Shown: positions 57,243 to 64,000 of the stretch, piece by piece | How the letters are laid out: every line of letters starts with the position of its first letter | Position numbering within the stretch: the stretch's first letter is position 1 | Source: Vicinamibacterales bacterium | GTDB lineage: Bacteria > Acidobacteriota > Vicinamibacteria > Vicinamibacterales > UBA2999 | Reading direction: 5' to 3' | DNA length: 64,000 bases | Assembly: GCA_044347565.1 (NCBI GenBank) | Contig: JBIKUN010000002.1 | Span: 13,118-77,117 of the forward strand | Made by a program: the position numbers and the translations under genes | Notes under the pieces: generated by a model | Told to the model about the DNA's origin: nothing | The model's input: only the letters and a program-made list of their open reading frames with translations | The model's database searches: none

Positions 57243-59759
57243 GTGATCGGCACGACCATCGGCCCGTATCGGGTCCTGCGTGAACTCGGGCAGGGCGGCA
57301 TGGGCACCGTCGTGGTCGCGGAAGACACGCGCCTCGGCCGCCACGTCGCCCTCAAGACCGTCTCCGGCGCCCGGGCCGGCACCTCCGGCGGCCGCGCGCA
57401 ACTGCTCGACGAAGCCCGCGCCGCCGCCGCCCTCACCCATCCCGCCATCGCCGCCGTCCACGACGTCATCGAACACGACGGCAACATCGCCATCGTCTTC
57501 GAACTCGTCGAGGGCGAGACGCTCGCCGCGCGCCTCGCCAGGGGCCCGCTGCCCGAGCCGCTCGCCGTCAGCATCGCCGTGCAGATCGCCGACGCCCTCG
57601 CCGTCGCCCACGGCGCGCGCGTGCTGCACCGCGATCTCAAGCCGTCGAACATCATGCTGGCGCCCGGCGGCATCGTGAAGATCCTCGACTTCGGCATCGC
57701 GCGTTTCCGCCCCGTGGGCCACGAGGCCCCGGCGGGGAAGGACGGCGACGAGGGCTTCATGGGCACGCCCGGCTACGTCGCGCCGGAGCAGTGGACCGGC
57801 AAGGCGGTGGACGAACGCGCCGATCTCTACGCCCTCGGCGTCGTGCTCTTCGAGATGCTCACCGGCAAACGCCCGTTTCCCGAGCGCGAGCCGTTCACGC
57901 TGGCGCTGGCCGCCATCGACCGCATCGCCCGCCGCGTGTCGTCGCTGCGCCCGGGCGTGTCGCCGGCGCTCGACAAGCTCGTGGCGCGGCTGCTCGCCGC
58001 TGACCCGGGGCTGCGGCCGCCGCGCGCGCGCGTTGTGGCCGACGAATTGCGGGCGCTCCTCGCGCCGCCGCCGGCGGCGCCGCCGCCGCCCTGGCAGGTG
58101 TGGGCGGGCGTGGCCGTGTTCGCGCTGGCCGTGACCGGCGGCGCGCTCTGGTGGTTCCTGCGCCCGGTGCGGCTCGACGTGCGCAACCCGGTCATCGCTG
58201 TGCTGCCGCTCGCCAACGAAACCGGCGACCCCGCGAGTGACTACCTCGCGGCTGGCGTCGCCGACAGCCTCGTCACGAGCCTCGCCTCGTTTCCGGCGGT
58301 GACGACGCTCTCGCGCGCGATGGTGGCCGAGGCCCGCGCGCGCGACTCGACGCCGAGCGCCATCGCCCGCGATCTCGGCGCCACGCTGCTCGTCGATGGC
58401 ACCGTGCAGCGGCAGGACGACAAGCTCAGCATCGCCATCAGCCTCGTGTGGCCGGATGGCCGCATCGCCTGGCGCGAAGCGGCGGAAGGCCCGGCGCGCG
58501 ATGTGTTCGCCATCCAGGCGCGGCTCGCGAGCGCGCTCGTGAGCGCGCTCAGCGTGCAGATGTCGGCCGACGACGAAGCCCGCCTCGAGACGCCGCCGAC
58601 GTCGAATGCCAACGCGCTCGATGCCTACTGGCGCGGCCGCGCGCTGCTCGAGCGGCGCGACACGCCGGGTAATCTCCAGCTCGCGGAGGTCGCCTTCCGC
58701 GAGGCGCTGCGGCTCGATGCGCGGTTCGTCGACGCGCACGTCGCGCTCAGCGAGACCTACTGGGAGCTCTACAACACGACGCGCGATCGGCGCTGGGTGC
58801 CGCAGGCACAGCAGGAATCGGCCACCGTGCTGGCACTGGCGCCGGACGTGGCCGCCGTGCGCCTCGCGCTCGGCATCACGCTCACGAACAGCGGCCGCTA
58901 CGGCGAGGCCGTGCAGGAGCTGCAGCGCGCGCTCGCCATCCGGCCGAACGATGACGAAGCGCGGCGCTATCTGGGCAAGGCGCTCGCCGCGGCCGACCGC
59001 ACCGACGAGGCGGTGGCCGAATGGCGCAAGGCGCTCACCATCCGGCCGAACAACTGGCAGGCCCTCAGCGACATGGGGCGGGCGCTCTTCGGCAAGGGCC
59101 GGCTCGCCGAGGCCGAAGCGACCTACCGGCAGCTCGTCGCGCTCAATCCCGACAACGTCATCGGGCACCAGGGGCTCGGCACCGTGCTGCACCGGCTGAA
59201 GCGCATTCCCGAAGCGCTCGAGTCGTACGAACGCGCTACCGCAATCACGCCCGCCGCGCAGACGCTCTCGAATATGGGCACGCTCTACTACGAGCGCCGT
59301 GAGTACGGGAAAGCGGTGGAGGCCTACCGCCGCGCGATTGCGATCCGGCCGAACTCGGCGCCGACACATCGCAACCTCGGCGACCTGCTCACGCAACTCG
59401 GCCGGCAGGACGAAGCGCTCGCGGCCTACCAGCGCGCCGTCGAGCTGGCGGAAGCGGCGCGCGAGGTGAATCCCGCGGATGCCCAGAACCTCGCCGAACT
59501 GGCCGTCTATACGGTCAAGACGGGGCGGATCCCGGACGCGCTCGGCTACGCGGCCGAGGCGACGCGGCTCACGCCCGAGGCGCCCGCGGTCTGGTGGCTG
59601 GCGTCGCACGTCTACGCGCTGGCCGGACGCCCCGAACCGGCCCTCGACGCCCTCTCGCGGGCGCTGGCCATGGGCCGCGCGAAGGCCGATGCCCGCGAGG
59701 CGCAGGAACTGGCGTCGCTGCACGGGCACCCGGCCTTTCAGCGTCTCGTGGCCGAATAG
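57243..59759 (+). CDS. Hanks-type Ser/Thr kinase with a TM helix, TolB-like domain and TPR repeats
   Basis: [31 protein letters not shown]; IAVLPL.N; multiple TPRs. Confidence 0.92.
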
Positions 59760-59839
59760 CCGGCGACGGGGCGGGGGGCGGTCCGGGCGTCGCTGGTGTA
59801 TCGTTACGGCGTCGTCCTTTCGGCAAGGAGCCGTTCACC

Positions 59840-60169
59840 ATGTCTCGACCCAGAGTGCGCTACGCGACGATCTTCGTCTTCCCGCCGCCCGCCAAAGGCA
59901 AGGCGCCGGTTGTGAGCACGTCGCCGGAACGCCTGACCGTCCGCGCGGGCGATTACGTCGAATGGACCATCGTCGATGCCAGCGGCATGGCCGGGCAGAT
60001 CTCGGTGGGCTGGGAGAAGCGCAACCCGCTCAAGGGGGCGTCCAGCAAGCCGTTTGAACGCCGCACGCGCGATGCCGTGCGCGCCAAGGTCGAACCCGGC
60101 ATCTACAAGTACAACGTGCTCATGGACGGTAAGGTCGTCTTCGATCCGGAACTCGAGATCATGAGCTAG
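59840..60169 (+). CDS. Small hypothetical beta-sandwich protein ending in YKYNV...DPELEI
   Basis: AAGGAG Shine-Dalgarno; SPERLTVRAGDYVEW. Confidence 0.75.
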   Translation: MSRPRVRYATIFVFPPPAKGKAPVVSTSPERLTVRAGDYVEWTIVDASGMAGQISVGWEKRNPLKGASSKPFERRTRDAVRAKVEPGIYKYNVLMDGKVVFDPELEIMS

Positions 60170-60174
60170 GGCCG

Positions 60175-60546
60175 ATGTCCGCAGTGCGCCGTCATCTGCG
60201 CCGGGGCGTCGTCGCGTGGCTCGTGTGCCACGCGCTGACGTTCACCGCGCTCATGCCGCGCGACTGCTGCGCCGCGCACGCGCATGCCGCCCGCGCCGAG
60301 GCGGCGCCGGAAGGCGACGCCGGCTGCCCGATGCACGACGGCGCCGCGCCCGAGGCCGACTGTGCGATGGCCGGCACCTGCCAGGCGCCCGGCGCGGCCC
60401 TGGCCGCGGTGCTGCTCCAGGTCGCGGTGCTCGAGCCGGTGACGCACGTCACCCCACACCTGTCGCCGGTCGCGCGTCCGCATCCGCGCACGGCCTCCCC
60501 CCGCACGCTCGCCAGCCCGCCCGACGCACCACCTCCACGCCTCTGA
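60175..60546 (+). CDS. Cys/His-rich exported leader protein with a C-terminal PPPR (CutF/CruR/DUF2946-like)
   Basis: Signal-like N-terminus; DCCAAHAH, GCPMH, CAMAGTC; ends PPDAPPPRL. Confidence 0.7.
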   Translation: MSAVRRHLRRGVVAWLVCHALTFTALMPRDCCAAHAHAARAEAAPEGDAGCPMHDGAAPEADCAMAGTCQAPGAALAAVLLQVAVLEPVTHVTPHLSPVARPHPRTASPRTLASPPDAPPPRL

Positions 60547-60620
60547 CACCACGCACTGCAGGGAAGACGGCGGAGCCGCGTGCGCGTGCTCCGCGTGGTG
60601 TGTCGTGTGGGATGAGGTGG
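60529..60620 (+). promoter_or_regulatory. Stem-loop sequestering the Shine-Dalgarno of the gene at 60624
   Basis: CCACCTC (60529-35) pairs with GAGGTGG (60614-20); CCACGC with GTGTGG (60605-10); ACACCACGC (60546-54) with GCGTGGTGT (60593-601). Confidence 0.65.
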
Positions 60621-60623
60621 GTC

Positions 60624-61988
60624 ATGAACAACTGGATACGGACGGCGGCGGCGTGTGCCGCCGTGATGGTGACGGGAATCGCCGTGGCGCGCGGGCAGAT
60701 GCCGCCGCCAGCGCCGGTGGCGTCGCAGCGGGATCAGGTGACACTGGCGGTGCCGCGGCACAACAACGCCGCGCCGTGGGTGGCCTCGGCGGGGCGGTTC
60801 GTCGCCGTCACCTGGGGCGCCGCGCTCGAGGGAAAGTGGGACATCTACGTGGCCACGAGTGCCGACGAGGGCCGGACGTTCGGCACGCCCGTGCGTGTCA
60901 ACACCGTGGACGGCGATGGCCGTGTCGGCGGCGAGATCCCGCCGCGCGTCGCGCTGCACCTGCCGAAAGGCGCCACCGTGCCGCAGGTAGTCGTGGCGTG
61001 GAACGCGAAAGACCAGGGCACGGAGATCAAGATCGCGCGCAGCCGCGACTTCGGGAAGACGTTCGCCGCGCCGGTCTCGCTGCAGGCGCCGGGGGCGGCC
61101 GGTGATCGCGGCTGGCACGCCCTCACGATCGACGCGCAGGGCCTGGCGCACGTCGTGTGGCTCGACCATCGCGGCCTCGCCGAAGCGAAGGCGGAAGCCG
61201 GCGCGAAGGCGGGCGGCGCCGCGGCGGCCCCCGCGGGTCACGCCAGCCATGAAGCCGCAGCGCTCGACGGCGTGGCGATGGCGATGAAGTCGCGCCTGCA
61301 CTATGCGACGTATGGCGAGCGTGCCACGCCCGAGCAGATGCTGGCGCCCGGCGTCTGCTATTGCTGCAAGACGGCGCTCGCTCCCACCGCGAAGGGCGTG
61401 CTCGCCACCTGGCGCCACGTCTACGACGGCAACATGCGCGACATGGCGTTCGCGCTCCTCGGCGCGCCCGGGGCCGCCGCCGCGCCGCCGCGCCTCAGCA
61501 CCGACGGCTGGTCGATCAACGGCTGTCCCGACGACGGCCCGGCACTCGCCGTTGACGCCGGCGACCGTGTGCATGCCATCTGGCCCACGGTGATTCCTGG
61601 CGACGAGCCGGTGGGCGCCTTGTTCTACGCGTCGAAGGCGGCCTCGGCCCAGACCTTCGGCGCCCGCCAGCGCATCACGACGCTCGGCTCGCCGAAGCCG
61701 TCCCACCCGCAGGTGGCGGTCGACGGCGCCGGCCAGCTGTTCGTGGCGTGGGACGAAATCGTGGGCGGCGTGCGCACGGCGGCCTGGTCTCACGGCACCG
61801 CCACCGATGGCGCGCTGCGCCTCGGTGCGCCGGAGCGCCTGGCCGCGGCCGGCCCCACGCAATATCCCGTGATGGCGCCCCTCGCCCGCGGCGTCGTCGT
61901 GGCCTGGGTCAGCGGGGCCCAGGGAACGAGCGTGATTCGCCTGCGACACCTCGTCGCAGCAGGCGCGGCCGTGACGGCCGCACGATAG
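60624..61988 (+). CDS. Exported BNR/sialidase-like beta-propeller protein with CYCC and GCP motifs
   Basis: Asp-boxes SADEGRTF and SRDFGKTF; VCYCCKT, WRHVY...RD, WSINGCPDDGP. Confidence 0.8.
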   Translation: MNNWIRTAAACAAVMVTGIAVARGQMPPPAPVASQRDQVTLAVPRHNNAAPWVASAGRFVAVTWGAALEGKWDIYVATSADEGRTFGTPVRVNTVDGDGRVGGEIPPRVALHLPKGATVPQVVVAWNAKDQGTEIKIARSRDFGKTFAAPVSLQAPGAAGDRGWHALTIDAQGLAHVVWLDHRGLAEAKAEAGAKAGGAAAAPAGHASHEAAALDGVAMAMKSRLHYATYGERATPEQMLAPGVCYCCKTALAPTAKGVLATWRHVYDGNMRDMAFALLGAPGAAAAPPRLSTDGWSINGCPDDGPALAVDAGDRVHAIWPTVIPGDEPVGALFYASKAASAQTFGARQRITTLGSPKPSHPQVAVDGAGQLFVAWDEIVGGVRTAAWSHGTATDGALRLGAPERLAAAGPTQYPVMAPLARGVVVAWVSGAQGTSVIRLRHLVAAGAAVTAAR

Positions 61989-61991
61989 GAG

Positions 61992-62678
61992 ATGACCATG
62001 ACACGCATGCAGATCGGCAGTCTTTGTGTGGCCGCGGTGCTCATCGCGGTGCCGGCCCGTGCCCAGCAGCACGGTGGGCAGAAGCCGGGCGCCATGGATC
62101 ACATGGACCACAAGTTCGACGATCCCGAACGCTACGCAAAGTCGTTCGACGATCCGGCGCGCGACGCCTGGCAGATGCCGGCTCGCGTGATCGAGGCGCT
62201 GGCCCTGAAGCCGGGGCAGAAGGTGGCCGACGTCGGCGCCGGCACCGGCTATTTCAGCGTGCGCCTGGCGCGCGCGGCGGCGGCGCCGAAGGTCTTCGCC
62301 GTGGACCTCGAGCCGAAGATGGTCGAGCACCTCACGAAGCGCGCCGCGGCCGAAGGCCTGAAGAACATCACCGCGGTGCAGGCCTCCACTACCAGCCCCA
62401 ATCTGCCGGAGCCGGTCGATGTCGTGCTCATCATCGACACCTACCACCACATCGGCAACCGTCCGGCGTACTTCGCCGCTCTGAAGTCGACGCTCACGCC
62501 GGGCGGCCGCATTGCCATCGTCGACTTCCGTAAGGGGGCACCGGGGGGCGGTCCACCCGACGCGTTCCGCTTCACGCCCGAGCAGATCACGGGCGAACTG
62601 GCCGAGGCCGGCTACGTCCTCGATGCATCGCACGACTTCCTGCCGCGCCAGCACTTTCTCGTCTATCGCATCAAGTAG
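61992..62678 (+). CDS. Class I SAM-dependent methyltransferase with a signal peptide and His/Met-rich N-terminus
   Basis: RDAWQ.P, VADVGAGTGYF, DTYHHI, FLPRQHF. Confidence 0.85.
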   Translation: MTMTRMQIGSLCVAAVLIAVPARAQQHGGQKPGAMDHMDHKFDDPERYAKSFDDPARDAWQMPARVIEALALKPGQKVADVGAGTGYFSVRLARAAAAPKVFAVDLEPKMVEHLTKRAAAEGLKNITAVQASTTSPNLPEPVDVVLIIDTYHHIGNRPAYFAALKSTLTPGGRIAIVDFRKGAPGGGPPDAFRFTPEQITGELAEAGYVLDASHDFLPRQHFLVYRIK

Positions 62679-62693
62679 TCACCTGGAGGCTCC

Positions 62694-63551
62694 ATGACCC
62701 GTTCGTCGCTCGCCCTGCTGTTCTCGTTCGCCCTCGCGGCGCCGGCCGCCGCGCAGGCGCCGTCACCCGTAAAGATCCGCTTCGCGATGACGGCCGCGGG
62801 TGCACCCGTGACGTGCGGCGCGAACATCAGTGGCGTGGGCACGACGAACTCCACGGTGAGCATCATCGACGCGCGGTTCTACGTGTCGCGGCTGCGCCTC
62901 GTGCGGGCGGATGGCGGCCAGGTGTCGGTGACCCTCACGCAGGACGGCCTCTGGCAGCTCGACGACGTGGCGCTGCTCGATTTCGAGAACGGCACAGGCG
63001 GCTGCGCGAACGGCACCGAGCAGACGCGCGATGTCATCGAGGGCACGGCGCCGGCGGGGCAGTACACCGGCGTGCGCTTCGACGTCGGCCTGCCGTTCGA
63101 GAAGAACCACCGCGACCAGACGCTGCAGCCGTCGCCGCTCAACCTGAGCCGGCTCTTCTGGAGCTGGAACGCGGGCTACAAGTTCATGCGCATGGACATC
63201 AGGAGCACCGGTCAGCCGCGCGGCTGGCTGCTGCACCTCGGCAGCACCGCGTGTTCCCCCACGGGCAGCCCGTCCACCGTGCCGGTCTCGTGCGCGAACC
63301 GAAACGTGGTGACCGTGGACCTGCCGGGCTTCTCGGCGGCCCGCGACGTGGTCGAACTCGACTTCCTGGCGCTCTTCGCCGGCAGCAATGTGGACACGAA
63401 TACCGACAAGACCGCCCTCGGCTGCATGTCGGGTGGCAGTGACCCCGAGTGCCACGGGCTCTTCGGACAGCTCGGGCTGGCGATTGCCGATAAGGCCGCT
63501 GGTCCGCAGCAGGTCTTCCGCGTGAAGCCCGCCGCGACGCTCGCCCGGTAG
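62694..63551 (+). CDS. mbnP: MbnP-family copper-binding protein (four-Cys 'metallo-mystery pair' protein)
   Basis: DARFYVS, ALLDFENGTGGC, NH, LFWSWNAGYKF (WxW), HLGSTAC, GCMS...DPEC. Confidence 0.85.
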   Translation: MTRSSLALLFSFALAAPAAAQAPSPVKIRFAMTAAGAPVTCGANISGVGTTNSTVSIIDARFYVSRLRLVRADGGQVSVTLTQDGLWQLDDVALLDFENGTGGCANGTEQTRDVIEGTAPAGQYTGVRFDVGLPFEKNHRDQTLQPSPLNLSRLFWSWNAGYKFMRMDIRSTGQPRGWLLHLGSTACSPTGSPSTVPVSCANRNVVTVDLPGFSAARDVVELDFLALFAGSNVDTNTDKTALGCMSGGSDPECHGLFGQLGLAIADKAAGPQQVFRVKPAATLAR

Positions 63552-63562
63552 GAGTGTCACGC

Positions 63563-64000
63563 GTGCGGGTCCGGTCTGCGCTCGTTGCCGCCACGGTGCT
63601 CTGGGGCGGCGTGTTCGCCGCCCACGTGGCGGGGCGGCAGGAGCACGTGCATCATGCGCCGGCGCAGGCGCGGATGCTCACGAGTCCGCTCGAACTCTCT
63701 GAGGCGGACCTGACCGCGGGGCAGACCACCTACGAGTCACGCTGTGCCGGGTGCCACGGCCGCGCCGGCACGGGCGGCGCCGCGCCGGCGGGCGGCCGCC
63801 CCGCGCCGTCCGACCTGACGCGTCCAGACCTCCGCACACACACGGACGGGGAGATCTACTGGGTCATCGCCAACGGCATCCCCGCCAGTGGGATGCCCGC
63901 GGCGTCGGGTCTGTCAGAGACCGCACGCTGGCAGCTCGTGGCGTGGGTGCGCAATCTCGGCGGCATCAAGCCGCCGGTGCGCGCCGCCGACGGCGGCGCC
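63563..64000 (+). CDS. Exported c-type cytochrome, partial; possibly the N-terminal domain of an MbnH/MauG-like di-heme enzyme
   Basis: Manual translation after AGGAG: signal peptide, QEHVHH, YESRCAGCHG, DGEIYWVIANGIPASGMP, WQLVAWVR. The frame stays open to the window end. The MbnH link is inferred from position only. Confidence 0.7.
   Translation, partial: MRVRSALVAATVLWGGVFAAHVAGRQEHVHHAPAQARMLTSPLELSEADLTAGQTTYESRCAGCHGRAGTGGAAPAGGRPAPSDLTRPDLRTHTDGEIYWVIANGIPASGMPAASGLSETARWQLVAWVRNLGGIKPPVRAADGGA

Follow-up and report, generated by a model that had tools for sequence, protein, structure and literature searches.

A candidate metal-sensing leader peptide ahead of MbnP-type genes in Acidobacteriota

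The leader and its family

In a 64,000-nucleotide (nt) stretch of a Vicinamibacterales genome (Acidobacteriota; assembly GCA_044347565.1, contig JBIKUN010000002.1, positions 13,118 to 77,117 of the forward strand; hereafter the window), we examined a short open reading frame (ORF) of 123 amino acids (aa) as a candidate leader, that is, an upstream ORF whose translation may control, in cis, the copper-related genes that follow it. The original prediction, made from the sequence letters, had assigned this ORF a signal-like N-terminus, CC, HAH, CPMH and CxxxxxC motifs and a PPDAPPPRL tail, all of which were found at 60175-60546 on the + strand. Its protein-level features are as follows.

60175..60546, +: leader ORF, 123 aa, ATG to TGA; member of an unnamed family that is not Pfam DUF2946 (from homologs, representatives and alignments)
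60175..60255, +: N-terminal export-like segment, residues 1-27, with RRHLRR followed by a hydrophobic helix (from conservation and a structural model)
60265..60381, +: Cys/His sensor-like region with C31 C32, H35 H37, C51-P-M-H54, C63 and C69 (from alignment conservation)
60382..60528, +: spacer from C69 to the first Pro of PPP, fixed in length and variable in sequence, including a conserved AALAAVLLQ helix
60517..60546, +: putative arrest motif PPDAPPPRL and the stop codon (from homolog tails and rare codons)
60529-60537, +: PPP codons CCA CCT CCA (from the sequence)

The product begins with MSAVRRHLRR and 17 hydrophobic residues, continues through CC (residues 31-32), HAH (35-37), CPMH (51-54) and Cx5C (63-69), and ends in P115-P-D-A-P-P-P-R-L123, in which Pro119-121 form the PPP repeat. 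A canonical AxA site is not visible in the N-terminus, where a basic n-region and the 17-residue hydrophobic stretch are present. An AlphaFold2 model built from 79 sequences predicts a confident helix over residues 2-26 (per-residue confidence, pLDDT, 94-96), further helices at 30-41 and 67-80, and coil elsewhere, and its overall score (predicted template-modelling score, pTM, 0.35) indicates no compact fold.

A word-indexed search returned 100 homologs of 81-170 aa, the few named ones being hypothetical proteins of Acidobacteria or Vicinamibacterales, and matches were present in 18 of 61 related genomes. Among 1.84 billion cluster representatives searched with a family profile, 493 matched at E<=1e-3, of which 212 also passed E<=1e-10. 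The leaders occur in a set of Acidobacteria from soil and lakes. Two alignments, one of 33 and one of 79 members, show C31, C32, C69, P120 and P121 to be invariant and H35, H37, H54, C63, P119 and R122 to be nearly so, and the N-terminus follows a nearly invariant pattern, VRRHLRxG..WL.CH.L.F.AL. The original prediction had asked that PPPR be conserved among homologs, and this was found in a strict form: 99/100 end in PPP[R/K], exactly one further residue and the stop, most commonly as PPDAPPPRL (28) or PPDSPPPRL (23), the remaining homolog having a C-terminus of another kind. Among 147 further representatives the same ending occurs in 121, two or three residues follow PPP[RK] in 3, and 23 differ, several of these carrying PxPPRA or a 4-5-residue extension and some being truncated. 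Given the 100 homologs, the 493 representatives, and PPP residues that are invariant across the family while their codons vary, the leader ORF is, to judge from these comparisons, a translated gene under amino-acid selection. Separately, the host genome holds a second, weak match to the leader (E=0.007), interrupted by an internal TGA.

The first Pro of PPP stands 50 residues after the last Cys in 91/99 homologs and 51 after it in 4/99, the other 4/99 having an additional Cys in the linker, and this spacing is 49 or 50 in 108/124 of the wider representatives. Between the CC motif and PPP, by contrast, the spacing runs from 77 to 135. The spacer is thus fixed in length and free in sequence. These features could instead belong to a small metal-binding protein of the operon that is anchored in the membrane and has a function of its own, for example as a chaperone or as a partner of the receptor, in which PPPRx would be a protein-level motif and ordinary translational coupling would at most connect it with the next gene. 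Conserved Cys/His motifs and a hydrophobic helix suit such a protein, while the placement of the stop exactly two codons past PPP in 99/100 homologs, the spacer of fixed length and free sequence, and the lack of a compact fold argue against it, as does the report that CutF, a leader of comparable build in Rhodobacter capsulatus, is undetectable as a protein in vivo (PMC9973294). With the nucleotide-level results below also bearing on it from both sides, we regard this explanation as quite unlikely.

Putative stall codons and the Shine-Dalgarno region

At the nucleotide level, the end of the leader faces the Shine-Dalgarno (SD) region of the next gene across a short intergenic region, with the following features.

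60480..60560, +: C-rich, G-poor tract (C/G 2.3-3.7), predicted 5' strand of a long-range helix with the SD region and candidate Rho loading site
60547..60623, +: intergenic region, 77 nt, from leader stop to next ATG
60570..60594, +: GC-rich intergenic hairpin in the minimum-free-energy (MFE) structure, at the same relative place in other loci
60593..60622, +: G-rich 3' strand (C/G 0.3-0.6) including the SD sequence GAGGTGG (60614-60620)

The tail A-P-P-P-R-L is encoded by GCA CCA CCT CCA CGC CTC. Across 1373 long ORFs of the host genome (70% G+C), CCA accounts for 4.3% and CCT for 2.7% of Pro codons, and GCA for 3.3% of Ala codons. Because these codons are so rare, the codon choice of the tail is far from chance, and the claim that the PPPR codons are unusual is borne out. 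The pattern extends to the family, for which 49 loci were collected and reduced to 33 non-redundant ones. Here CCA or CCT fills 49/99 PPP codons, compared with 7/54 in the prolines of the preceding PP-D and 48/400 Pro codons elsewhere in the same 33 leader ORFs (12%; the genome-wide share is 7%), with CCA mostly at the first Pro of PPP (12/17) and CCT mostly at the second and third (24/32). These counts point to nucleotide-level selection on the stall codons, and the confinement of rare codons to PPP is a further argument against a working protein.

The original prediction had named two helices by which the leader's end might close the SD. Both complementarities exist: CCACCUC (60529-35) is a perfect complement of GAGGUGG (60614-20), whose GAGG lies 6 nt before the ATG of the next gene at 60624, and 60546-54 is a perfect 9-nt complement of 60593-601. 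As a fold they fail, since forcing both gives -53.7 kcal/mol, about 10 above the optimum, with an ensemble probability of ~0. The MFE structure of 60500-60640 (-63.7 kcal/mol) pairs the SD at 60616-22 with GCUCGCC at 60507-13, 60607-11 with 60516-20, and 60595-605 with 60522-32, the PPP-codon stretch, and these pairs enclose the hairpin at 60570-94. The proposed topology, a C-rich leader 3' end facing a G-rich SD region around a hairpin, was thus recovered, and the exact pairs were not. Opening the SD in the free mRNA of the window is predicted to cost 13.3 kcal/mol.

Folding of each locus separately also pairs the SD region with the leader's last codons in most loci. For example, CGCCUCGCCUG pairs with CAGGCGAGGUG in L034 and CGCCUCCGCG with CGCGGAGGUC in L048; in L005, where CCUCGAAUC pairs with GAUUGAGG, the flank of the SD is matched by an Ile codon and by CGA, a rare codon for Arg; and in L045, whose SD is AGGAG, CCUCCUCCCCGC pairs with GCGGGGGCAGGAG. 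We then recoded the last 14 codons synonymously, weighted by host genome codon usage, in two runs with differing flank lengths and sample sizes and over 27 loci, 6 with long repeat-bearing gaps being left out. The native SD-opening energy exceeded the mean of the recodings in 25/27 loci, and its value was reached by <=10% of recodings in 13/27 and by <=2% in 9/27. Sliding a modelled 30-nt ribosome footprint along the last 72 nt of the leader, we found mean SD-opening energies of 10.9-11.7 kcal/mol until the P site stood at the codon before PPP, and 8.0-8.2 on PPP, Arg or the last codon. The mean was lowered from 11.9 to 8.0 kcal/mol only with the P site between PPP and the last codon, where the minimum also fell in 17/27 loci. 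With 60 nt of upstream sequence, placing the ribosome on PPP decreased the opening energy by >=3 kcal/mol in 20/33 loci.

Conservation of the pairing depends on its register. In the register first proposed, 68.1% of cells were paired across 27 loci, a value equalled by 214/500 shuffles, with no covariation, and slides by three bases scored almost as high because of the CCN periodicity. One codon further 3', a helix joining the last two bases of Pro2, then Pro3, Arg and two bases of the last codon, to the SD core together with the flank on its 5' side shows pairing in 69.3% of cells, compared with 38-52% in slid controls, and 0/500 shuffles reach either this percentage or its covariation score. 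At two of its pairs both bases have changed, in 6 and 5 sequences respectively. Covariation is seen in this family register and not in the original one, and it speaks against a working protein linked to the next gene by no more than translational coupling. Within the window, the one-codon-shifted register forms 7/7 pairs, compared with 7/10 in the family register. In 25/33 cases (mean z -0.76) the SD of the same locus is also a better partner for the leader end than the SDs of dissimilar loci, the own pairing lying in the best tenth in only 7/33.

Several results weigh against SD masking by the leader's end and unmasking by a stalled ribosome, the first of them from the window itself. Its fold is unexceptional against dinucleotide shuffles (z = -1.31; 18/200 fold equally well), 17% of synonymous recodings reach its native SD-opening value, and a ribosome placed on PPP changes the opening energy from 13.3 to 14.1 kcal/mol in one run and from 13.6 to 12.5 in the second, so that no unmasking is predicted, since the part of the anti-SD can be taken over by C-rich segments lying further upstream. 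The window's own locus is, in these models, a weak example of the mechanism. Family-wide, ~8 kcal/mol of SD masking is left with the modelled ribosome in place. Permuting codons among identical residues, which keeps composition, weakens the effect, with the native value above the permuted mean in 20/27 loci and reached by <=10% of permutations in only 7/27. RNAalifold found 0 pairs in a MAFFT alignment of 27 leader 3' ends and intergenic regions, an alignment whose middle is unreliable and in which the pairing register differs among lineages. The codon usage of one genome was applied in recoding all loci, the loci are related, so that family counts overstate their independence, and CCN Pro codons and a GGAGG SD are complementary by nature. 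The rare Pro codons may instead serve slow decoding. Finally, the leader is not the first gene in its cluster, a 109-aa gene ending 5 nt upstream of it in the window. The insignificant RNA signal at the window locus and the partly compositional complementarity are also what a working protein would lead one to expect.

The same leader and the same stall could also have a transcriptional output, in which the C-rich last ~80 nt would be a Rho site covered by the paused ribosome, relief of the pause would lead to termination, and SD pairing would be secondary. The C/G ratio over 60480-60560 and a median ratio of 1.95 over the last 80 nt of 33 leaders, a stretch rich in C and poor in G at every locus, fit such a site, and a scan of 59500-60800 showed no intrinsic terminator on the leader strand. 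There is also a precedent in CruR of Bordetella pertussis, which controls a TonB-dependent transporter: according to the published account, arrest on its RAPP motif prevents Rho-dependent termination, copper relieves the arrest, and its second half holds a C/T-rich unstructured stretch with rare codons (PMC9426467). Against this stand an intergenic region of only ~77 nt, where cruR has 162, with a high G content and strong predicted structure, a C-rich tract predicted to be base-paired with the SD region, and a codon choice that improves SD masking specifically. A Rho-based output is, on balance, unlikely.

In distant members, such as L040, L041, L046 and L044, the intergenic hairpin begins to resemble an operator: ~20-45 nt past the stop of the leader, its DNA forms an almost perfect palindrome centred on CACGTG (GGCACACGTGTGCC). 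Such a sequence could equally well act in the RNA, as a hairpin belonging to the switch, or in the DNA, as a binding site for a regulator.

The genes around the leader

The genes on either side of the leader in the window are the following.

59840..60169, +: conserved 109-aa gene of no family (ORF), with a weak sub-threshold AMPK1_CBM-like Pfam match and no signal peptide
60624..61988, +: BNR-like gene with an exported product of 454 aa (BNR_2, sub-threshold), putatively the first under control of the leader
61992..62678, +: class I S-adenosylmethionine (SAM) methyltransferase with an N-terminal signal-like segment (domain match)
62694..63551, +: MbnP-family copper-binding protein (PF20243, 2.9e-41; TIGR04052, 8.4e-82)
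63554..64000, +: cytochrome c domain, cut by the window end (domain match)

In the relative L021, the counterpart of the cytochrome gene encodes a 502-aa protein with cytochrome c and di-haem peroxidase domains (CCP_MauG, 1.1e-43) and is MbnH-like. Comparison of the 33 loci showed that the leader is followed by a TonB-dependent receptor in 27, where an N-terminal motif identified the receptor in 23 and inspection by eye in the other 4, and by the BNR-like gene in 6, among them the window and its nearest relatives. Two receptor examples matched OMP_b-brl_4 (1e-102 and 1e-103), CarboxypepD_reg and TonB_dep_Rec_b-barrel. In receptor loci the BNR-like gene comes next after the receptor, and where loci extend far enough downstream the methyltransferase, MbnP and peroxidase genes come after the BNR-like gene. 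Two paralogous leaders (L006 and L020) are present in genome G016, where one precedes a BNR-like gene and the other a TonB-dependent receptor.

Leader and next gene are separated by 66-83 nt in 25/33 loci, and longer gaps hold inserted palindromic repeat units. In L028, L029, L030 and L016, for instance, tandem units resembling repetitive extragenic palindromes (GTAGGGCGGAGCTTCAGCTCCGCC-type) extend the gap between leader and receptor to 148-240 nt, with the conserved last ~25 nt before the start codon retained.

Upstream, the 109-aa gene directly precedes the leader in 15/26 related loci (tblastn). Contigs from four RNA-library runs (X15, X16, X17 and X19) cover only this gene and the beginning of the leader, and the junction of the two (60140-60308) is bridged by one contig from a relative. 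None lies on the leader 3' end, the intergenic region or the start of the BNR gene, and the contigs are not informative on absence, ends or level; they speak neither for nor against the leader model. In two lake-water runs, RNA-library contigs match the 109-aa gene at 99-100%.

Scans for promoters and terminators over 59500-60800 revealed nothing resembling a promoter and a single terminator-like site, which lies within the upstream gene on the minus strand, and an Rfam search of 59700-60800 at E<=1 returned nothing. Open frames of 128 aa (60166-60552) and 820 aa (60192-62654) are present on the opposite strand, as is usual in DNA of 70% G+C, with no evidence of being genes.

In one relative (L031, 5777-7309), a fusion protein of 510 aa combines the methyltransferase with MbnP, which suggests that the two act together.

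Comparison with known leaders and a proposed mechanism

Control of metal genes by arrest peptides has been documented so far for two proteobacterial DUF2946 proteins, CruR (Bp2923) and CutF (PMC9426467, PMC9973294), and the original prediction had called the present switch analogous to these but divergent. That description agrees with what we found, in that the anatomy is the same and the DUF2946 profile, PF11162, matched 0/33 family members at E<=10 and 0/79 at E<=1. The same profile exceeded its cut-off in 0/41 related genomes and in 2/301 genomes of the phylum. Searches of the leader protein against Pfam and NCBIfam identified no family, Pfam giving no match at E<=1, and in a protein atlas its nearest neighbours are only unnamed clusters from Acidobacteriota and Gemmatimonadota; named neighbours at 0.93-0.94, comprising DUF6660, DUF6769, DUF2946 (26% of that cluster's members) and CzcI, are a lead and not evidence, those of DUF2946 and CzcI fitting a likeness in type. 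The leader family lacks the CxxC and CxxxC motifs, its conserved cysteines being those of CC, CPMH and Cx5C. It also lacks RAPP, its PPP repeat standing two residues before the stop as in the CutF type and not the CruR type. On these profile and motif comparisons, the leader family is a separate family built like CutF and CruR and not a recognisable member of DUF2946.

The likeness to CruR extends to genes and spacing. CruR-type genes head operons that also hold MbnP/MbnH-like genes, over 95% of DUF2946 proteins carry an export signal, and CruR's CXXC and RAPP motifs lie 45 residues apart, a spacing kept in more than 2000 family members and needed for regulation (PMC9426467). The present family shares with CruR, as described there, the position of an upstream ORF before a TonB-dependent transporter, operon types with MbnP/MbnH-like genes, a fixed distance between Cys and arrest motifs (45 in CruR, 50 here) and a C-rich stretch of rare codons near the 3' end. 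It differs in that RAPP in CruR stands three residues before the stop and uses frequent codons, whereas the present tail is D-x-PPPR-x-stop with rare codons; moreover, in place of CruR's longer intergenic region and Rho-dependent output it has a short one that is predicted to be structured, and PF11162 does not match it.

CutF, the leader of cutFOG, offers the closer model for the RNA. It combines a CxxxC motif with a C-terminal PPP (bioRxiv 10.1101/2025.02.05.636593, PMC9973294), and in its published description it resembles the present family as a small exported leader (export being predicted here) with a Cys motif, a PPP close to the stop and a copper-related operon, in which RNA pairing closes the SD of the next gene and would be opened by a paused ribosome (modelled here for the family). 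There is no sequence or profile similarity between the two, and CutF's CxxxC contrasts with CC..H.H/CPMH/Cx5C. Whereas the anti-SD of CutF lies in an intergenic stem-loop, here it is predicted to lie in the leader's own last codons in most loci, and whereas CutF controls a detoxifying oxidase, the present genes are of uptake type; because of this, the sign of control is probably opposite to that of CutF. SecM, which controls secA in Escherichia coli, is likewise an exported leader that carries its arrest peptide close to the C-terminus and works together with an SD-masking helix disrupted by the stalled ribosome (bioRxiv 10.1101/2025.02.05.636593). As characterised in that source it differs in monitoring export and not metal, in its arrest motif and in having no Cys/His sensor, which the present family has.

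An alternative is that stalling is constitutive and does not sense metal, the PPP pause setting a fixed ratio of leader to downstream translation or, in the manner of SecM, monitoring export or EF-P capacity. A PPP motif alone can pause ribosomes (bioRxiv 10.1101/2025.02.05.636593), as this would require. With Cys/His motifs that are invariant and held at a fixed distance from PPP, and with copper-type uptake genes following (MbnP, an MbnH-like peroxidase and a TonB-dependent receptor), we consider a constitutive stall very unlikely.

From these observations we propose that the 123-aa ORF is a cis-acting, metal-sensing arrest-peptide leader that unmasks the SD of the downstream genes, a reading drawn from sequence comparison to which we assign a probability of roughly 55%. 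Our confidence is moderate for the leader peptide and lower for the exact RNA mechanism at the window locus. The comparisons show the anatomy, its conservation, the codon bias and a predicted pairing with family-level statistics, whereas we infer that the chain is exported, that the ribosome stalls, that a metal binds, which metal this is and in which direction control runs. The N-terminal signal or anchor would take the nascent chain to the Sec translocon, and as the ribosome arrives at PPDAPPPR the Cys/His motifs, ~50-90 residues from the peptidyl-transferase centre, would reach the periplasmic side. The 50-residue ruler, which parallels the functionally required CXXC-RAPP spacing of CruR (PMC9426467), would span the exit tunnel and the translocon and so set the timing of sensor emergence. 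The ribosome would then pause on Pro-Pro-Pro, with two codons left before the stop. Of the contexts in which pausing depends on EF-P, PPD and APP belong to the stronger ones, and PPDAPPP would then presumably be a double pause site.

While it dwells on PPP-R-x-stop, the ribosome would hold the C-rich last codons that otherwise pair with the G-rich SD region, leaving the ribosome-binding site exposed and allowing the next gene to be initiated, an RNA output that would be CutF- and SecM-like. The length of the pause would set translation of the TonB-dependent receptor in most relatives, or of the BNR-like, methyltransferase, MbnP and MbnH-like genes in the window. Binding of a metal, probably copper, to the nascent sensor may alter the pulling or folding force and so lengthen or shorten the pause. 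Because the controlled genes look uptake-type (receptor, MbnP, MbnH-like), the likeliest logic would be CruR-like, with a long pause and genes ON when metal is lacking, and release and genes OFF when it is bound.

More tentatively, the leaders may form an independently evolved metal-sensing arrest-peptide family in Acidobacteriota, with at least 493 cluster representatives, in which dual-coded stall codons (rare CCA/CCU serving as the anti-SD of a TonB-receptor/MbnP copper-uptake operon) would place sensor, timer and RNA switch within ~20 nt. The device type is already known. The family itself, with its sensor motifs, arrest tail, 50-residue ruler and an anti-SD, marked by rare codons, within the stall and termination codons, is not described in the literature searched. 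'Acidobacteria' does not occur in the main text of PMC9973294; among the papers listed on DUF2946 and copper, none, by title and abstract opening, concerns Acidobacteria or a PPPR tail; and the only paper found that links arrest peptides with MbnP is that on CruR (PMC9426467).

If the proposed mechanism holds, an unrelated-looking family from Acidobacteria, which are abundant in soil and lake water, shares the architecture of the proteobacterial leaders, and the design would be general and possibly convergent. The family would also provide a natural comparison set, with a different arrest motif, a ruler of 50 and not 45 residues and an anti-SD inside the stall codons, that could address how a periplasmic metal signal passes back to the peptidyl-transferase centre. 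In addition, the BNR-like, methyltransferase, MbnP and MbnH-like genes and the receptor would be marked as one regulated uptake unit, probably for copper.

DUF2946-like leaders of the known kind also occur in related Acidobacteria (L050-L057). They share with the present family the phylum, the size, an N-terminal RxxR and helix, a Cys motif and a Pro tail beside the stop, and differ from it in their HCxxCH motif, their (A/S)R(A/S/G)PP ending and their scores of 19-29 bits on PF11162, none of which the present family shows. An hhalign comparison of the leader family with seven such local ORFs gave a probability of 10%, over the signal segment alone, and 1.9% with one of them. The ORFs at L050-L057 are 94-128 aa long and end in ARAPPxA, SRSPPA or TRGPPA. 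They are typical leaders of the RAPP type whose PF11162 scores fall mostly below the cut-off, and annotation pipelines would overlook them.

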